Shown piece by piece: positions 1,511 to 60,215 of a stretch of 64,000 nt of DNA; position 1 is the first letter of the stretch; each line of letters starts with the position of its first letter. Both the position numbers and the translations under genes were made by a program. The stretch lies in contig JAPLYL010000001.1 of NCBI GenBank assembly GCA_026395595.1, positions 6,174-70,173 on the forward strand, given 5' to 3'. This DNA comes from Candidatus Parcubacteria bacterium (lineage in GTDB: Bacteria > Patescibacteriota > Minisyncoccia > Phycocordibacterales > CAIJYI01). Under the pieces are notes generated by a model. The model worked only from the letters and a program-made list of their open reading frames with translations. It had not been told where the DNA came from and made no database searches.

Positions 1511-4192
1511 TTAACCGCCGGAACCGTTACACATCCAAACATAGTTTGCCATTGAGTCGGTGGTGTCAAAGAATGTTCCTCTTACGCAAGTATTATTAAC
1601 GGAAGTATTGCATAGCCCGTTAACAAGCGAAGTTACTGCAATTGTATCTGTTTGCCCGAGATAAGTAGCCGTAACCGTAGCCGTATTCGCGCTTTTTCCA
1701 ACAATCCACCCCTTATCTGTAATCGTATTCGTAACCGTAGCGACCCCAGCGGCGCTACTTGTCCAATTTGAAGACATGGTTACATCGATTGCCCCCGGAT
1801 GAGAAGAGCATTTAGCGCCAACTCCATACCATCCAATAGCCTGTATTCCCGTCTCTCCTACAGCAACAGTGGTCGTGAATGGACAAATAACAAATGTTGC
1901 CACATTTACCGTAAAAGGCACCCACTCAGAGGTGGCAGGATCTGTTACGCTGTTATCTTTTGTTCTTACTTTAAAAGTATAGGCACCCGAAGTGGCCCAA
2001 GTATGAGCCGTTTCTTGTATGGTTGCAGGAGTAACATATCCTGATACTGGAATAATTCCATCGGATACTCCATCGTCATTCCAATCAAATTGGTAGTATA
2101 CGTTATTTCCTTCTGTATCAGGGGCAGAATGAACATAAAAACCAACTGATTGCCCTTTACTCACCGTAATAGGCGAACCATTTCCTGAAAGGTTGGTAAT
2201 AATCGGAGGCTGAGCAGTGTTAGGAAGTATGGTTACTGTTACTGAGTCACTAACGGAAACACCAATCGAATTTGAACAGGTCATAGTGTAAGTGGTACTA
2301 GTGGTTATACCTCCGGGAGTAATTCCGGTGGAATTACTCCGATTTCTTGTCGTACTATTCCATTCAGTATCACCCGAAGAAACGCATGGATATTCAGAGT
2401 TAGTAGACGACCATGTAAGCACCGTGCTGTTTCCGGAAATGACAGAAGTCGGTGTAGCTGTAAGAGTAACGGTTGGATTCGGAACAACGGTCACTGTGAC
2501 AGACGCGCTAGCGTTGACACCTGCGGAATTGTGGCAAGTAAGAGTGGACCACTTGAGAATGGTGTTCGTTCCCGTTGCGATAGAAGATGGTGTTGCCGTA
2601 AGACTCACGGTTGGCGGCGCGACGCAAGCGCTTCCATCCCATGCATATCCAGTATTGCAGGAGAATTCACATTTCGCGACGGTATTAGGATCAGCGTAAG
2701 AGTAGTTAGTGGCGACTATAAGTCCGGTGAGATTAGTGCCGGTGTAAGCAGTTCCATTTGTTGGGACCGTTCCTCCACAGACGTATGGGTCTCTTGATGC
2801 GCTGCAAGAAGCAGTGTTGCCAGTGTTTACGCCAGTACAAGTCCATGTAGCGCTAGAACCAGCAGTCGGGAATGTTGGGAGAAAACCAGTTCCTGCTGAA
2901 CAAGCGGTATCAATACCAAAAGAAGTAACGCTTGAAGCATATGCTTTGTTGTTAGCCGTTCCACAAGCACCGTTGACCGGGATAAGAGCGGTTACTGTTA
3001 CTGAGTCGCTAGCGGAAACACCAACAGAATTGGAACAAGTAAGGGTGTAGGTAGTATCTGCAGTAACGACAGAACTAACTCCGGTAGCGTTATTGAGATT
3101 GCGAGTATTTCCTGTCCAGCCGCCAGTAGAAGTACAAGGATAAACACCACCAGTAGACGACCAAGTAAGCAAAGTACTATTCCCTGTAACAACAGAAGTC
3201 GGCGCAGCCGTAAGAGTAACGGTTGGATTCGGAACAACGGTAACTGTTGCGGAAGCGCTGGCAGTAACGCCGGCTGAATTATGACACGTAAGGGTGTAGG
3301 TGGTGGTTGTAGTGATACCGGTGACAGAATTCCCTGTTGTCAGATTTGATTTTATCTTTGTTCCGCTCCACGTTCCGCCTGATGCGGTACAGCTTGTGTT
3401 ATCAGAGACATTGGTAGTATCCCAAGTAAGGAGAGTGCTTCCATTCGGAGAGATAGAAGATGGTGTTGCCGTAAGACTCACGGTTGGCGGCGCGACGCAA
3501 GCGCTTCCATCCCATGCATATCCAGTATTGCAGGAGAATTCACATTTCGCGACGGTATTAGGATCAGCGTAAGAGTAATTAGTGGCGACTATAAGTCCGG
3601 TGAGATTAGTGCCGGTGTAAGCAGTTCCATTTGTTGGGACCGTTCCTCCACAGACGTATGGGTCTCTTGAAACAGTACAAGAAGCATTCGTTCCAGTATT
3701 TATGCCATTACACGACCAAGTAGCAGTGGAACCTGCGGCGGGAAAAGTTGGTAGAGAACCAGTTCCAGAAGAACAAGCCGTATCAACACCATAAGAGGTA
3801 ATCGTAGAAGCATACGTTTTGTTGTGAGCCGTACCGCAAACGCCGTTTACCGGGATAAGAGCGGTTACGATCACCGAACCGCTAGCGGAAACACCAACAG
3901 AGTTGGAACAAGTAAGGGTGTACGTTTTGTTCGCATTAACAACCAAACTGACCCCAGTACTATTAGAGCGGCTCCGGCTGGTGCTATTCCAGTCGGTTGA
4001 CCCAGAAGAAGTGCAGGCACCGGTCGTATTGGTTGACGACCATGTAAGCACCGTGCTGTTTCCGGAAATGACAGAAGTCGGTGTAGCTGTAAGAGTAACG
4101 GTTGGATTCGGAACAACGGTCACTGTGACAGACGCGCTAGCGTTGACACCTGCGGAATTGTGGCAAGTAAGAGTGCCAAATATGCTCCGCAA
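1511..4192 (-). CDS. Large secreted repeat protein with Ig-like (Big_2/PKD-like) modules and ~290-aa internal tandem repeats. The reading frame is separated from its probable signal peptide by a frameshift at an A7 tract; possibly phase-variable or a pseudogene.
   Basis: The 893-aa ORF has a repeated module TLTCHNSAGVxASASVTVTVVPNPTVTLTATPTSV...TWSST (3 copies) and a Cys-rich module VCGGTVPTNGTAYTGTNLTGLIVATNYSYADPNTVAKCEFSCNTGYAWDGSACV (2 copies). The C-terminal region resembles Big_2. The ORF begins at TTG with no signal peptide in frame. Confidence 0.75.
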   Translation of the reverse strand: MRSIFGTLTCHNSAGVNASASVTVTVVPNPTVTLTATPTSVISGNSTVLTWSSTNTTGACTSSGSTDWNSTSRSRSNSTGVSLVVNANKTYTLTCSNSVGVSASGSVIVTALIPVNGVCGTAHNKTYASTITSYGVDTACSSGTGSLPTFPAAGSTATWSCNGINTGTNASCTVSRDPYVCGGTVPTNGTAYTGTNLTGLIVATNYSYADPNTVAKCEFSCNTGYAWDGSACVAPPTVSLTATPSSISPNGSTLLTWDTTNVSDNTSCTASGGTWSGTKIKSNLTTGNSVTGITTTTTYTLTCHNSAGVTASASATVTVVPNPTVTLTAAPTSVVTGNSTLLTWSSTGGVYPCTSTGGWTGNTRNLNNATGVSSVVTADTTYTLTCSNSVGVSASDSVTVTALIPVNGACGTANNKAYASSVTSFGIDTACSAGTGFLPTFPTAGSSATWTCTGVNTGNTASCSASRDPYVCGGTVPTNGTAYTGTNLTGLIVATNYSYADPNTVAKCEFSCNTGYAWDGSACVAPPTVSLTATPSSIATGTNTILKWSTLTCHNSAGVNASASVTVTVVPNPTVTLTATPTSVISGNSTVLTWSSTNSEYPCVSSGDTEWNSTTRNRSNSTGITPGGITTSTTYTMTCSNSIGVSVSDSVTVTILPNTAQPPIITNLSGNGSPITVSKGQSVGFYVHSAPDTEGNNVYYQFDWNDDGVSDGIIPVSGYVTPATIQETAHTWATSGAYTFKVRTKDNSVTDPATSEWVPFTVNVATFVICPFTTTVAVGETGIQAIGWYGVGAKCSSHPGAIDVTMSSNWTSSAAGVATVTNTITDKGWIVGKSANTATVTATYLGQTDTIAVTSLVNGLCNTSVNNTCVRGTFFDTTDSMANYVWMCNGSGG
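2290..4190 (-). repeat. Intragenic tandem DNA repeats (period ~870 nt) within the surface-protein gene.
   Basis: Near-identical ~120-nt blocks at 2581-2700 and 3451-3580. Identical spurious antisense ORF peptides recur (2292..2699 vs 3300..3572; 2305..2487 vs 3871..4116). Confidence 0.7.
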
Positions 4193-5305: not shown

Positions 5306-5656
5306 TTACACTCGAGGGTAAACGATATTTACCCCCTGTGGTCCGTCATAATTTCCGAGAGTATTTTGCATAAAACCGATAATTCCCCAAATAGTAATGA
5401 GAACAAACAAAGCGACCACCCCCCATACCATGATATTTTTTCCTTTTTCGTTGGCGTTTTTATCCTCTTGATTAAGGAGAAATAAAGCTAATCCGTAAAA
5501 GAAGGCAACAAAAGCAAGAGTTCCGAAGATATTTATGAGGGATAATGTTACCGATAAAAACATATCAAGAGTCGTTCCAAGAGTAGTAAAACCAGAGACA
5601 GCAAAAGGAACAAAAGAGAGACTGCCTATAAAAAATAAAAGCATGTTTTTTTTCAT
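5306..5656 (-). CDS. VirB2/TrbC-like (T4SS pilin-like) small membrane protein, paralog 1.
   Basis: 116 aa. Signal peptide, hydrophobic helix FFYGLALFLL, a charged loop (EDKNANEKGK), then MVWGVVALFVLITIWGIIGFMQNT. This is a typical two-helix pilin architecture and is near-identical in its C-terminus to paralog 3. Confidence 0.55.
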   Translation of the reverse strand: MKKNMLLFFIGSLSFVPFAVSGFTTLGTTLDMFLSVTLSLINIFGTLAFVAFFYGLALFLLNQEDKNANEKGKNIMVWGVVALFVLITIWGIIGFMQNTLGNYDGPQGVNIVYPRV

Positions 5657-5729
5657 AGGTTAATTATAACAACGGTTCAATAAAAAAACAAACCGCCATA
5701 ATGACAGTTTGTTTTTTTCTAAATTTTTA

Positions 5730-6002
5730 CTAATTTGAGGGGATAGAGACTCCTTCTGGTAACGTAATGCCAAAAGTTCCAATAATGAGTCTCATGATCC
5801 CAAAAACACTGATCATGATAAACATTCCCAAAAGACCCCACACCATATGCCTCTGTCCTATGGCACGATCGGCAGGACTGCCGGCGATATAATATCTTGT
5901 CATTCCATAAAGGAACAAAATAGTCGCGAGAACGAACAAGAACCCAATAAAAGGATTGAGGATATAGGTGTTTATCTTCAAAAGAAGCTGATCAATGTTC
6001 AT
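5730..6002 (-). CDS. VirB2/TrbC-like small membrane protein, paralog 2.
   Basis: 90 aa with an ATG start at 6002. Motif FLYGMT...HMVWGLLGMFIMISVFGI. Confidence 0.5.
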   Translation of the reverse strand: MNIDQLLLKINTYILNPFIGFLFVLATILFLYGMTRYYIAGSPADRAIGQRHMVWGLLGMFIMISVFGIMRLIIGTFGITLPEGVSIPSN

Positions 6003-6022
6003 AAAACGGTAATTTCAGTCTC

Positions 6023-6421
6023 TTAGATAGTGATATTAATGAGTCCGCCACCGGTGGTATTGCTCGGGGTAACGTCAGGAAGAGTAAGAGTCTGTGTTCC
6101 GGTCGGTCCTCCGACATTTCCAATAGTGTTCTGCATAAAACCGATAATTCCCCAAATGGTTACCATAACAAACAAAGCGAGAACGCCCCAGATCATGATG
6201 CTTTTTCCTTCCTTGGCTTTGTCTTCATCTCCGGCTGCCAAAACGTACATGGCCAATCCCCAGAAGAAGAATACAACGACGAGAGTGGAAACAATCGGAA
6301 CAAGCATATTGACGATAGTTCCCACCAATCCGACAAGACCCTGCAAATTTCCCGCTGTATTTTGAGCGGAAGCGATAAATGGCGCAGCAAACGCACCGAG
6401 TACTATGAGTATTTTTTTCAT
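6023..6421 (-). CDS. VirB2/TrbC-like small membrane protein, paralog 3.
   Basis: ATG at 6421 (MKKILIVLGAFAAPFIASAQ signal peptide). Motif FFFWGLAMYVLAAGDEDKAKEGKSIMIWGVLALFVMVTIWGIIGFMQNT, ending in a Gly/Thr-rich tail. Confidence 0.55.
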   Translation of the reverse strand: MKKILIVLGAFAAPFIASAQNTAGNLQGLVGLVGTIVNMLVPIVSTLVVVFFFWGLAMYVLAAGDEDKAKEGKSIMIWGVLALFVMVTIWGIIGFMQNTIGNVGGPTGTQTLTLPDVTPSNTTGGGLINITI

Positions 6422-6545
6422 ATGAAAAATGTTATACCTTATAATTTTAATAAATAAAAAGAATGAATACACATTCTATTCTCTTTAATTGTATCAGATA
6501 ACGGAATGAGGGCAAATAAACGTGTGGATAAGCAAAGAAAAACGT

Positions 6546-6830
6546 TTATGAACTTGATGGCAGTTGCGGAATAAGAAGAGGAGAAAGATTAAATGTGTTC
6601 ACCAAAACTCCGACGATCCCCCACAAAGTGAACATCACAAAAATTGCAACAATGCTCCACATCATCCATGCCTTTCCTTTCGTCCTTTTATCATCATCAC
6701 TAGTGTTGAAGATAAAAACAACGATTCCATAGAAAAACGCGGCAAAGGCGGCGGCAAAGAGCAACCCCATAGCCTTGGCGATAAGCCCGATAAAAAGATT
6801 CATAATGTCTTGAAAATTGGTCGGTGCCAT
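6546..6830 (-). CDS. VirB2/TrbC-like small membrane protein, paralog 4.
   Basis: 94 aa. Motif FFYGIVVFIFNTSDDDKRTKGKAWMMWSIVAIFVMFTLWGIVGVLVNT. Confidence 0.5.
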   Translation of the reverse strand: MAPTNFQDIMNLFIGLIAKAMGLLFAAAFAAFFYGIVVFIFNTSDDDKRTKGKAWMMWSIVAIFVMFTLWGIVGVLVNTFNLSPLLIPQLPSSS

Positions 6831-6860
6831 ATAGTTTAGTTTAGATAATAAAAGTAGTAT

Positions 6861-7292
6861 TTAACCGGTGGGCCCTCCTATCTGCGCGATCGTCCCGACA
6901 ATGGCATTCGCCAAAAGCCACGAACCGAAAAGAACCGCCGTTCCGATAACCGCCCACAGAAAAGCATTTTTTGCAGAGGTGAGTTTCGTTTCATTTCCTT
7001 GCGCGGTGAGAAAAAGAAATCCGGAATAAAGAATAAAGAACGTGGCAACAGGAACGCCTATTTGCAAAAGAATACGAAGAACACTCTGAATAAATTCGGG
7101 TAAAGAGTGAATATTCGGAGTAATCGGTTCAGCCGCCAAGTTTATTTTTGGAGGAGAATCGGCAAAAACTGATACGCCAGTAGAAAGTAACAAAACAACA
7201 AAAGCACCAACTCCAAATGTTCCGGACGGGGGTACAACCCCCGTCCGGCGACGAGCGATGGCTCTCTTTTCATTTGTCATTTCGTTTTTCAT
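6861..7292 (-). CDS. VirB2/TrbC-like small membrane protein, paralog 5 (longer N-terminal region).
   Basis: 143 aa. Motif FILYSGFLFLTAQGNETKLTSAKNAFLWAVIGTAVLFGSWLLANAIVGTIAQIGGPTG, with a C-terminal GG as in VirB2. Confidence 0.5.
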   Translation of the reverse strand: MKNEMTNEKRAIARRRTGVVPPSGTFGVGAFVVLLLSTGVSVFADSPPKINLAAEPITPNIHSLPEFIQSVLRILLQIGVPVATFFILYSGFLFLTAQGNETKLTSAKNAFLWAVIGTAVLFGSWLLANAIVGTIAQIGGPTG

Positions 7293-7455
7293 TGGAAATT
7301 TGAAATTTTATTACCCCCCCATCGACCCAATCGTATTTTGAAAAACTTTTAAGGTGTTTATATATTGATTTAATTATATCATATCAATAAAAATTTCGAC
7401 GAAGTTTATCCACAGAGTTGCACGTACTTGTTGAATGTAGCAAACGAATACTTGA

Positions 7456-7488
7456 CTTAACATAAGTTATATGTTAACTTATGTTAAG
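7456..7488. promoter_or_regulatory. Inverted repeat (11-bp arms CTTAACATAAG / CTTATGTTAAG, 11-nt spacer) overlapping a TTGACT -35-like hexamer. Candidate operator/promoter for the small plus-strand ORF.
   Basis: The arms are perfectly complementary and lie about 120 nt upstream of the ATG at 7606. Confidence 0.35.
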
Positions 7489-7681
7489 TTTGTTTTTGGG
7501 GTTATCTCAAAAAAAAGAATGGTTTCTTTGAAGTTTTTTTAATAAAACGATAAATTTCATTAGAAATTTTAACTCTACAAAGTGAAAATTCACAAGAGGC
7601 ATACAATGATTAATTCAGAATACTACCACAACAAAGGCGAACAAGATGGGGTAGAAGGGCCTTGTAGCTACGATCCCCCCA

Positions 7682-7849
7682 ATGAAAAACTTTGATTTTG
7701 ACTTTGACTACAAAGAAGATTACGATGCGGGGTGGTCTTATGCCAGAGGTCAGTATGATTATAATAATGATTGCGGATACAAACCCCAAGGCAATGAAGA
7801 ATCATACGACGAGGGCTGGGAAAACGCAAAAGAACAAGATGACGACTAG
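7682..7849 (+). CDS. Small acidic Tyr/Asp/Gly-rich protein (MKNFDFDFDYKEDYDAGWSYARGQYDYNNDCGYKPQGNEESYDEGWENAKEQDDD). The upstream ORF 7606..7695 (MINSEYYHNKGEQDGVEGPCSYDPPNEKL) is probably its frameshifted N-terminus.
   Basis: Hand-translated, below the ORF-track size cut-off. It is the only plus-strand gene inside the minus-strand pilin array and is followed by a clean terminator. The two ORFs overlap at a C6 tract (7675-7680), and deleting one C fuses them. Confidence 0.45.
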   Translation: MKNFDFDFDYKEDYDAGWSYARGQYDYNNDCGYKPQGNEESYDEGWENAKEQDDD

Positions 7850-7862
7850 ATAGTTAAGCTGT

Positions 7863-7892
7863 GACCACAATTGAAAAATTGTGGTCTTTTTA
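7863..7892 (+). terminator. Rho-independent terminator (stem GACCACAATT/AATTGTGGTC, loop GAAAA, T5).
   Basis: A perfect 10-bp stem followed by TTTTT on the plus strand. Confidence 0.65.
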
Positions 7893-7908
7893 TATTTCCC
7901 TATTGCAT

Positions 7909-8244
7909 TTACCCACCAAGCTGACCGATAGTGTTTTTAACAATCGTTGCTACAATGATGGCGGACAATATGACTATGGCTCCGATAAAGCTTCCGACGA
8001 GCCACCCTCTCGCTATTTTTAACTTCCCAGGGTCGCCGCTTGCGGATACAAACAGATATCCGGTCCAAATAAAGGCGAGCGTAATAACGGGGATGCTGAT
8101 TCGTATCACGATATTCAACATCGCGGTTACGAATTCAAACAGCGTCCCCACTGCAGGCGTCGGAGAGGTAAGTTTGGTTACTCCTTGTGCAAAAGATACG
8201 AGGGGTAACAAATAAAGCGCGGTGATGTAAAAAAACTTTCTCAT
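7909..8244 (-). CDS. VirB2/TrbC-like small membrane protein, paralog 6.
   Basis: 111 aa. Signal peptide, then FIWTGYLFVSASGDPGKLKIARGWLVGSFIGAIVILSAIIVATIVKNTIGQLGG. Confidence 0.5.
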   Translation of the reverse strand: MRKFFYITALYLLPLVSFAQGVTKLTSPTPAVGTLFEFVTAMLNIVIRISIPVITLAFIWTGYLFVSASGDPGKLKIARGWLVGSFIGAIVILSAIIVATIVKNTIGQLGG

Positions 8245-11960: not shown

Positions 11961-11968
11961 GAGACACG

Positions 11969-12004
11969 AGCCCGTTCTGCATTTTCGCAGAGCGGGCTTT
12001 TTTA
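11969..12004 (+). terminator. Rho-independent terminator (AGCCCGTTCTGC...GCAGAGCGGGCT + T6).
   Basis: A 12-bp stem followed by TTTTTT. Confidence 0.65.
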
Positions 12005-12061
12005 CATTGATAATTCTAGAACCTGAATCCGAAAACCCAATTTTTCCGCACAAAACCCAGT

Positions 12062-12140
12062 TCGTCATCCCGTGCAGGGACACGGGATCCACGTAAGAGG
12101 TGTTAACGACGTGGATACCGGGTCAAGCCCGGTATGACGA
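12062..12140 (+). repeat. E-element copy 1. Structured GC-rich element: closing helix TCGTCAT/ATGACGA enclosing three hairpins (CCCGTG/CACGGG; CCACG-16 nt-CGTGG; ACCGGG/CCCGGT) joined by AT dinucleotides. Candidate four-way-junction ncRNA or MITE core.
   Basis: Read directly from the sequence. The same architecture occurs at 15533-15603 and 60139-60215 with compensatory stem changes. Flanked by the imperfect inverted repeat TTCTAGAACCTGAATC (12014-12029) / GATTCACAGTCTAGAA (12154-12169). Confidence 0.6.
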
Positions 12141-12171
12141 CGGGTAGTTTTCAGATTCACAGTCTAGAAAC

Positions 12172-12200
12172 TTGACAAAAACTGTTAATTGTTATAAGAT
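12172..12200 (+). promoter_or_regulatory. Sigma-70-like promoter (TTGACA, 17-nt spacer, TAAGAT).
   Basis: Hexamer match and spacing, upstream of the ATG at 12256. Confidence 0.45.
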
Positions 12201-15446: not shown

Positions 15447-15532
15447 TGCAGTAAATTATCTCAAAAATATCGTTTCCGGTCAACCGAACTTCAGGGATAA
15501 CTTTCCGTCAAAAGCAACTGCTCACACCAATA

Positions 15533-15603
15533 TCGTCATTGCGGGCTTGACCCGCAATCCACGGCTAAACGACGTGGATTCTGATTTTCATCAGAATGAC
15601 GAC
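15533..15603 (+). repeat. E-element copy 3 (TCGTCAT | TGCGGG-CCCGCA | AT | CCACG-gctaaacga-CGTGG | AT | TCTGAT-ATCAGA | ATGACGA). It is flanked by an 11-bp inverted repeat and a direct repeat, a MITE-like signature.
   Basis: Inverted repeat GCAACTGCTCA (15514-15524) / TGAGCAGTTAC (15646-15656). Direct repeat CCGTCAAAA (15505-15513) / CCGTCAAAAAA (15656-15666). Confidence 0.6.
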
Positions 15604-15792
15604 GAACGAGTTATTGCGTTTTTTCCGGTTAAAAAATAAGTGGTATGAGCAGTTACCGTCAAAAAACTGGACAGAAATAAATTCACGTGATGCTGTTTGA
15701 ACAGCCATATTCCATGGCTCTTTGAAATCCACGGGTGGAAAGCGTGACGCTTTTCATCTTTCAATACGGCGTGACGCCGAGGGATAACACCA

Positions 15793-16116
15793 ATGAAAAC
15801 ACAGCTAGATATTATGCAAGAACAACAGCATCATGGTCACGGAACAGCGACAATGCCACAGACAAAGATTGATGCTTTTTTGGAGGAATTTCCGCTTGTT
15901 CGCCATTACTTAAAAGATGCTCCGATAAAACAAGTGTATGTTTCCAAAATTGAGCCGGCACTTCTTGGCTATTCCCCAAGATTAGTGAACATCGCTCCTT
16001 TTTGGAAAATCCGTCCCGATTGGCAAGAAGAGCAAATTATCTTTTTTGACGAAGGCGGAAACGCTCTCCATGAGATAAAACTGGGGGTTAAAAAGAGGGT
16101 TCACTTAAATGTATGA
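15793..16116 (+). CDS. Hypothetical small protein (107 aa), first gene of an overlapping pair.
   Basis: ORF with an ATGA overlap to the next ORF. No family recognised. Confidence 0.5.
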   Translation: MKTQLDIMQEQQHHGHGTATMPQTKIDAFLEEFPLVRHYLKDAPIKQVYVSKIEPALLGYSPRLVNIAPFWKIRPDWQEEQIIFFDEGGNALHEIKLGVKKRVHLNV

Positions 16117-16379
16117 ATGAGGAACTTGCCGAAAGAATCGTTTACCTTCTCTCATACTTCAAATACACGGAAACAGCGATTATTTACAAAACACAAAAAG
16201 GATATTCCGTTCCTGAATGGATAAAAGCGCAAATAGAAAGAGAACGTCTCCAATTTAAAAAAGAAGTGGAAGCCATTGACCGCGAAGGAGAGGACGTAAG
16301 ACAAGGAAAACCTCTAAAACCGGAATTTCCAAAAAGCCGAACTTTTAAAGAAGGTGAATGCCCGAGAAAAACGGAATAA
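16113..16379 (+). CDS. Hypothetical small protein (88 aa), second gene of an overlapping pair.
   Basis: ORF translationally coupled to the one upstream and followed by a terminator. Confidence 0.5.
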   Translation: MNEELAERIVYLLSYFKYTETAIIYKTQKGYSVPEWIKAQIERERLQFKKEVEAIDREGEDVRQGKPLKPEFPKSRTFKEGECPRKTE

Positions 16380-16391
16380 AAAATAGAATTC

Positions 16392-16420
16392 CATGCCCCG
16401 CAATTGCGGGGCATTTTTCT
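16392..16420 (+). terminator. Rho-independent terminator (ATGCCCCGC aatt GCGGGGCAT + T5).
   Basis: A 9-bp GC stem followed by TTTTT. Confidence 0.65.
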
Positions 16421-60138: not shown

Positions 60139-60215
60139 CGTCATTCCGGACGAGATCCGGAATCCATAAGTTCGAGCACCCGCCCTGGATCCCGGGTCGC
60201 GGCCCGGGATGACGA
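60139..60215 (+). repeat. E-element copy 2 (CGTCAT | TCCGGA-cgaga-TCCGGA | AT | CCA-taag...-TGG | AT | CCCGGG-tcgcgg-CCCGGG | ATGACGA), 7 nt after the rnr stop.
   Basis: Same architecture and junction nucleotides as the copies at 12062 and 15533. The stems differ but remain complementary. Confidence 0.6.

Follow-up and report, generated by a model that had tools for sequence, protein, structure and literature searches.

The three GC-rich intergenic elements in this stretch of a Candidatus Parcubacteria genome are very probably head-to-head (HH) heterodimers of CGTC-tagged REPs, which are small, non-coding and non-autonomous palindromic DNA repeats. The whole stretch of DNA that was analysed, 64,000 nucleotides, is referred to below as the window. 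A reading made from the sequence alone had suggested two interpretations for these loci, a novel four-way-junction ncRNA or a miniature mobile element. The former was not borne out: the module from which each locus is built is the published CGTC REP unit (PMC3733652), the stems covary by Watson-Crick changes only, and the elements are present in some relatives and absent from others. The latter is supported by empty sites in relatives and by the terminal inverted repeats (TIRs) and 9-bp target duplication of copy B. The class was published in 2013, so these loci represent no RNA discovery. They would instead widen the range of CGTC REPs to include the candidate phyla radiation (CPR), for which a search of the full-text literature found no description of REPs, and a clean recent insertion with TIRs and a 9-bp duplication bears on how CGTC REPs, for which no transposase is known, are mobilised. 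There is also a practical warning, as head-to-head REP dimers mimic covarying four-way-junction RNAs.

All three loci are located where the sequence-only reading had placed them (Table 1) and the common architecture it described is real, with (T/C)CGTCAT...ATGACGA ends and two outer perfect 6-bp stems, each between ATs, in 3/3 copies. The elements are 71-79 bp in size (n=3), and pairs of CGTCAT...ATGACG ends at a distance of 66-75 bp occur exactly three times in the 64-kb window. The central hairpin is ATCCA...TGGAT in copies A, B and C, and its stem is CCACG/CGTGG in copies A (12062) and B (15533), as had been noted. It also holds that the stems differ between copies and yet remain complementary, the 6-bp stems being perfect in all six half-units. 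The stem sequences had been listed correctly but with copies B and C interchanged: TGCGGG/CCCGCA and TCTGAT/ATCAGA are the stems of copy B (15533), TCCGGA and CCCGGG those of copy C (60139).

Read from the end inward, all six halves consist of the same module, CGTC-AT-N6-loop(4-6)-N6'-AT-CCA. The chance of finding this module was estimated from first-order Markov simulations (n=300), none of which contained it, compared with six occurrences in the window; the same architecture is moreover found in more than 100 other genomes. These two results dispose of a chance similarity between three GC-rich hairpin clusters, an explanation for which nothing speaks except the small copy number in the window. 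Pattern searches, a covariance model run with filters off and a monomer scan gave no further or partial copies in the window. The copies form GC-rich islands (51-65% G+C compared with 42% for the window), none of them contains terminator-type T-runs and all three are intergenic, each of which had been recognised from the sequence.

Table 1. Positions of the three elements and of the repeats around copies A and B in the window, with units named according to their probable assignment to CGTC-tagged REPs
Feature	Position	Strand	Sequence or remark
Copy A, HH (tags outside) heterodimer of two CGTC REP units	12062..12140		the 'four-way junction' of the sequence-only reading
Unit A1	12063..12091	+	CGTC-AT-CCCGTG-CAGGGA-CACGGG-AT-CCA
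Spacer between A1 and A2 tails	12092-12111		
Unit A2	12112..12139	-	CGTC-AT-ACCGGG-CTTGA-CCCGGT-AT-CCA (read on - strand)
Outer inverted repeat of copy A, left arm	12014..12036		23 nt, 83% complementary; pairs with 12147-12169
Outer inverted repeat of copy A, right arm	12147..12169		unique in window
Copy B, HH heterodimer of CGTC REP units	15533..15603		
Unit B1	15534..15561	+	CGTC-AT-TGCGGG-CTTGA-CCCGCA-AT-CCA
Spacer between B1 and B2	15562-15574		
Unit B2	15575..15601	-	CGTC-AT-TCTGAT-GAAA-ATCAGA-AT-CCA (read on - strand)
Inserted segment carrying copy B	15514..15655		142 bp
Terminal inverted repeats of copy B segment	15516-15529, 15641-15654		AACTGCTCACACCA / TGGTATGAGCAGTT; 14 nt, 93% complementary
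Left direct repeat, target-site duplication of copy B	15505..15513	+	CCGTCAAAA; 9 bp
Right direct repeat, target-site duplication of copy B	15656..15664	+	CCGTCAAAA; 9 bp
Copy C, HH heterodimer	60139..60215		
Unit C1	60139..60166	+	CGTC-AT-TCCGGA-CGAGA-TCCGGA-AT-CCA
Spacer between C1 and C2	60167-60185		
Unit C2	60186..60214	-	CGTC-AT-CCCGGG-CCGCGA-CCCGGG-AT-CCA (read on - strand)

CGTC-tagged REPs, as described by Di Nocera, De Gregorio and Rocco in 2013 (BMC Genomics 14:522; PMC3733652), carry an unpaired terminal CGTC tag followed by an 8-9 bp stem in which positions 1-2 are A and T and are complementary, a loop of 4-5 nt (other lengths in some families) and an unpaired 3-nt tail at the untagged end, which is mostly CCA. 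The stems of CGTC-1 and CGTC-2 are 8 bp long and those of CGTC-3 are 9 bp. Most units occur as HH dimers with the tags outside, CGTC-2 and CGTC-3 forming chiefly heterodimers, and the dimer spacers often have complementary ends. A genome may contain tens to thousands of units of a family, most of them between genes and preferentially downstream of ORFs. The reported hosts are Proteobacteria (mainly alpha), Chlorobi, Bacteroidetes, Spirochaetes and Thermotogae; no transposase was found for these REPs, and the class is possibly nearing extinction (PMC3733652).

In the window the CGTC tag, a stem of AT, 6 perfect pairs and AT, and the CCA tail are each present in 6/6 half-units, and the HH heterodimer arrangement in 3/3 loci. 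The loops are 6, 5, 5, 4, 5 and 6 nt long, 4/6 being within the published 4-5 nt. The likeness to the published class covers the tag, the AT-start 8-bp stem, the CCA tail, the unlike HH partners and the complementary spacer ends, as well as the intergenic position. All 6 units in the 64 kb are intergenic, and no transposase family was seen among the 48 window ORFs scanned. The CTTGA/TCAAG loops and CCACG/CGTGG spacer ends of copies A and B are also those of alphaproteobacterial CGTC-3 dimers. The differences lie in the host, which is a Candidatus Parcubacteria (CPR) MAG from a phylum not on the list in PMC3733652, in the two 6-nt loops, in the stems, which here differ in every half-unit, and in copies A and B, each of which forms the core of an insertion of ~140 bp that has inverted repeats of its own and an 8-9 bp duplication. 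Br-REP1/2 of Bradyrhizobium (PMC5082802) were considered as another candidate and rejected, their sequences being different from those of the window elements.

The dimer arrangement explains the fold that gave rise to the RNA interpretation. Because two copies of the module lie inverted and the spacer ends are complementary, each locus has a closing helix, consisting of the two tags and their ATs (CGTCAT/ATGACG), and a central hairpin, consisting of the two CCA tails and the spacer ends (ATCCA(CG)...(CG)TGGAT), while the two outer hairpins are the palindromes of the single units. Tag-tag and tail-tail pairing therefore allow either single strand to fold as a four-helix junction, and a junction results instead of one long hairpin because the partner units carry unlike stems. 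For copies A and B the four-helix junction is predicted for RNA of either strand and for ssDNA, with z = -4.2 to -6.7. Copy C is predicted to favour a nested alternative fold over the junction, as the stems TCCGGA and CCCGGG are themselves palindromic.

A covariance model made from the three copies matched only those three in the 64-kb window (next match E = 0.17), and scored them at 83-92 bits on the + strand compared with 57-67 bits on the - strand. The architecture is strand-symmetric, as had been proposed, since it folds and scores on both strands; the 'same orientation' ascribed to the three copies survives as the higher + strand score, but is only weakly meaningful when the - strand still reaches such values.

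To place the elements among other genomes, one genome per species was scanned with the pattern CGTCAT-N15-20-ATCCACG-N5-20-CGTGGAT, which describes the left unit and spacer ends only; the tag of the right half, the perfection of the stems and the loops are outside this pattern and were counted model-free. The scan gave at least 120 loci, nearly all in Alphaproteobacteria among the matches listed, and most matched on both strands. ATGAC was found 14-22 nt downstream in 151/189 of the matches listed, compared with ~0.9% by chance. Among these same listed matches the stems were perfect over at least 6 bp in 148/189 cases on the left and 124/151 on the right, the number of distinct stem arms was at least 32, and homodimers accounted for 2/151 dimers, with CTTGT/CTTGA as the dominant left loops and ACAAG/TCAAG as the dominant right loops. 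Some 15 genuine CGTC head-to-head dimers were also seen on viral or proviral contigs of IMG/VR (L139-L160); all of these contigs are high in GC, so the dimers provide no link to the window's low-GC lineage.

The three-copy covariance model retrieves the alphaproteobacterial copies with E = 1e-12 to 1e-6, and an alignment was built from 123 of the matches listed (both strands, 51 sources, E <= 1e-5). In this alignment, where pairing counts are inflated because it includes every locus on both strands and results from a fit to the model but where the model-free count agrees, 97.1% of cells were paired, compared with at most 45% in slid-partner controls. Double changes were found in 305 cells and at all 24 pairs, compared with 73 in shuffles, and in helices 2-4 one-sided (G-U type) changes numbered at most 1 per pair, compared with up to 50 double changes; both counts are again among the matches listed.

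The helices of functional RNAs typically covary by way of G-U intermediates and show a strand bias; here G-U type changes are almost absent and both strands score. Watson-Crick-only covariation together with strand symmetry is the signature of a DNA palindrome and not of an RNA helix. The covariation of the stems that the sequence-only reading had reported is genuine, but a dedicated RNA does not follow from it, as G-U is nearly absent and both strands score. The function at the DNA level that it had allowed for as an alternative is supported by the same two properties.

A novel structured ncRNA, with a four-way junction selected for its RNA fold, now appears highly improbable. The strong predicted folds and the extensive compensatory changes are what such an RNA would display, and with no Rfam family it would be new, but both strands fold and score, G-U intermediates are nearly absent and the tag-hairpin-tail module belongs to a published DNA repeat class (PMC3733652). 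Such an RNA is equally hard to reconcile with the gain and loss of copies between relatives with 89-95% identical flanking proteins, with the position of copies A and B outside predicted transcription units, with an element that has no promoter or terminator of its own, or with dimers so widespread, at no fewer than 120 loci and in families of tens to thousands of units (PMC3733652). Rfam gave 0 matches at the gathering threshold for the window and for five alphaproteobacterial loci, and no relevant match with E <= 10 in the surroundings of copy A; no match is expected for a DNA repeat class, which is not a curated RNA family. The elements resemble tRNA-like and four-way-junction RNAs in being ~75 nt long with four helices, but differ from them in having no tRNA features, no Rfam match, a strand-symmetric architecture and no G-U pairs. 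An ARAGORN scan for tRNA and tmRNA gave 0 in the window, in agreement with the sequence-only reading that the element is not tRNA-like.

The window is chromosomal and encodes UvrB, UvrC, rpoB/C, DnaG, RNase R, ribosomal proteins and aminoacyl-tRNA synthetases. For RNase R and UvrC the identity with proteins of a Candidatus Parcubacteria bacterium MAG is 100%, and the next relatives are Paceibacterota/Patescibacteria. Copy A is situated between a strong terminator-like hairpin (11968-11999, with a T-run) and a promoter-like site at 12172-12200. The intergenic region of copy B is divergent, and the copy precedes the -35 of a promoter-like site for an S41 peptidase gene, on its upstream side. Copy C starts 7 nt after the stop codon of RNase R (rnr). 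The next ORF has the same direction and follows 44 nt after the element, and neither a terminator nor a promoter is predicted in this gene pair. From these contexts, at most one of the three copies is clearly inside a transcript.

Orthologous loci, obtained through close homologues of the flanking proteins, indicate that the elements are mobile. Copy B is carried on an inserted segment bounded by TIRs and direct repeats (Table 1). The same site is empty in L133 (peptidase 95% identical) and in L137 and L138 (89% relatives), where the sequence is uninterrupted and contains a single TTTTGACGG or its variant, and the loci L134 and L135 (72-75%) have no CGTC unit anywhere. A single insertion in the window's lineage is far more parsimonious than several exact deletions. 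A search of the metagenome collection with the S41 peptidase gave relatives of no more than 43% identity only and no usable orthologous loci; its sole exact match was a 1.7-kb Logan contig, and there was no exact protein on record for the 172-aa ORF or for P0001. The L135 spacer equivalent to that of copy B (~8090-8165, 72% peptidase identity) contains a GC-rich palindrome that differs from copy B and has a stem of 15 bp, CCAAGGGCAGCCCTT...AAGGGCTGCCCTTGG, and this intergenic spacer seems to collect palindromic insertions.

Copy A is likewise a ~140-bp insertion missing from the 89% relatives, site A being empty in both L137 and L138. It is present in near-identical form, with one loop difference, in the 94% strain L136. 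At the outer inverted repeat, a target duplication of 8-9 bp may be recognised, with TCTAGAAC at 12015-22 as its apparent left half and TCTAGAAAC at 12163-71 as its putative right half; the duplication, read by eye as TCTAGAA(A)C around ~140 bp, is imperfect. Site C has no element in L124 and L125, whose RNase R is 84-85% identical, while L122/L123 (81%) carry a CGTC dimer at the rnr site with stems TCCCGC and TCCCAT and a different spacer, which was probably inserted independently of copy C. Two different CGTC dimers are thus seen directly after an RNase R stop, copy C in the window and the one at 12085-12163 in L122, with closer relatives lacking one, and these dimers at the rnr 3' end could reflect either an insertion preference or selection.

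The REPs of E. coli keep 3' exonucleases from the mRNA upstream of them or attenuate read-through. A cis-acting RNA of this kind, possibly an exapted REP whose 3' structure shields the mRNA or attenuates read-through, is unlikely but would be compatible with the REP dimer explanation, and copy C is the candidate for it. Its position directly after rnr, in a co-directional pair with no predicted terminator or promoter, would suit such a role, as would the presence of a CGTC dimer, though a different one, in this intergenic region of L122/L123 and the preference of REPs for sites downstream of ORFs (PMC3733652). This role is difficult to square with L124 and L125, which are closer by RNase R identity and are without the element, or with copies A and B, which are not at 3' UTR positions, and there are two cases only.

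The full units of 140-142 nt are predicted to form a long stem with the junction at its tip. The outer repeats of A differ from those of B, and neither recurs elsewhere in the window; such a difference is unusual within a single MITE family. No convincing outer repeat or flank is shared among A, B and C, the sole lead being a weak similarity between the right flank of A and the right flank of the L122 copy. All eight half-units in this lineage have different stems, so simple copy-and-paste from one master is no explanation for them. The CGTC-1 dimers of Halothiobacillus neapolitanus (PMC3733652) are similarly nested in a longer palindrome (41 bp there), and their flank motif GAAAaACC ... GGTaTTTC resembles the GAAAACCC ... 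GGGTAGTTTTC found around copy A; the difference is that the outer palindromes here vary between copies and that one has been shown to be part of an inserted unit.

Several classes of mobile element offer a comparison. The features of MITEs are found in copy B, with its 14-nt TIR, 9-bp target-site duplication and empty sites, and in copy A on the basis of the 23-nt inverted repeat, the imperfect 8-9 bp duplication and the empty sites in L137 and L138. Like MITEs the units are ~140 bp in length and have a long-hairpin fold, but the TIR sequence common to a MITE family is missing, as A and B share no terminal repeat and their conserved part is the internal CGTC dimer. A RAYT/IS200-type enzyme would not be expected to give a 9-bp target duplication and terminal inverted repeats, which together suggest a staggered-cut, MITE-like route over a RAYT route. 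GTAG REPs and REPINs are mobilised by RAYT tyrosine (HUH) transposases (Bertels and Rainey 2011, Nunvar et al. 2010; PMC3116915, PMC2817692). They are similar to the window elements in being inverted doublets of tagged palindromes that are non-autonomous, multi-copy and intergenic and are thought to move as single-stranded hairpins. They differ in their tag, which is GTAG and not the CGTC of the window, where no RAYT was found. No Y1_Tnp match was obtained among the window ORFs scanned, and Pfam/NCBIfam scans revealed no transposase of any kind among the 48 window ORFs covered.

By analogy with GTAG REPs and RAYT, the hairpin and tag may be kept as a recognition feature for a mobilising enzyme or a copying process that acts on single-stranded or cruciform DNA. 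The dimer would then travel as the core of a MITE-like unit of ~141 bp moved in trans, and the mover could be a staggered-cutting (DDE-type) transposase and not a RAYT-type enzyme; we infer this mobilisation step, as there is no transposase among the window ORFs scanned. Effects at the RNA level, for instance through a stable 3' structure that copy C would give the rnr transcript, would be secondary. That CGTC REP dimers are transposing now in a CPR genome with very few genes, each dimer being the core of a ~141-bp unit which makes 9-bp duplications, is a tentative proposal that we consider possible but less than probable. If it is true, the recent insertions, the empty-site relatives and a gene content of ~1 Mb would make the mobilising enzyme identifiable by presence/absence comparison. 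The almost identical tag, CTTGA loop and CCACG spacer ends in Parcubacteria and Alphaproteobacteria would in that case point to horizontal spread or to one conserved enzyme specificity.

The dRS3 repeats of Neisseria serve as phage integration sites. A non-mobile DNA site for a host or phage protein, whether it is the target of a recombinase or integrase, as with dRS3, or a binding site of the gyrase or IHF type, would fit the strand symmetry and the Watson-Crick-only covariation, the equation of dRS3 repeats with CGTC-1 elements (PMC3733652) and the occurrence of real dimers on IMG/VR viral contigs. This is nevertheless very unlikely for the loci described here, because presence or absence between close strains and the target duplication mean that the element itself moves, no integrase or prophage adjoins the copies, and the distribution among relatives is uneven, a pattern which also led the authors of PMC3733652 to argue against a general chromosomal function.

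A number of other features were noticed in the window and its relatives. Strain L136 (GCA_026395575.1) has a strain-specific insertion of ~2.4 kb at 2402-4131, between uvrC and a methyltransferase gene, which is absent from the window, L137 and L138; the two strain-specific ORFs that it contains, of 149 and 398 aa (a TnpA+TnpB-like size pattern), gave no Pfam match. On the - strand of the window, six tandem small ORFs of 90-149 aa at 5306-8244 all match PF18895, a type IV secretion system pilin family, and the same cluster is found in L137 and L138. Also on the - strand, an 893-aa ORF of no convincing family (1511-4192) contains the internal DNA repeat AACTGCTTACACCG at 2740 and 3613, ~873 nt apart. 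The leader at 15690-15792 (+), upstream of the ORF at 15793-16116, is almost invariant in relatives with 72-95% identical peptidase. Its fold has three hairpins, two of them of GCGTGACGC type, with z = -2.4 and no Rfam match at E <= 1, and the leader may act as a cis-regulatory RNA or as an operator. At 16393-16414, where 16113-16379 and CorA adjoin, there is a perfect hairpin rich in GC, ATGCCCCGCAATTGCGGGGCAT, and a similar hairpin, GCCCCGCAATTC...GAATTGCGGGGC, is present upstream of the peptidase gene in L134.
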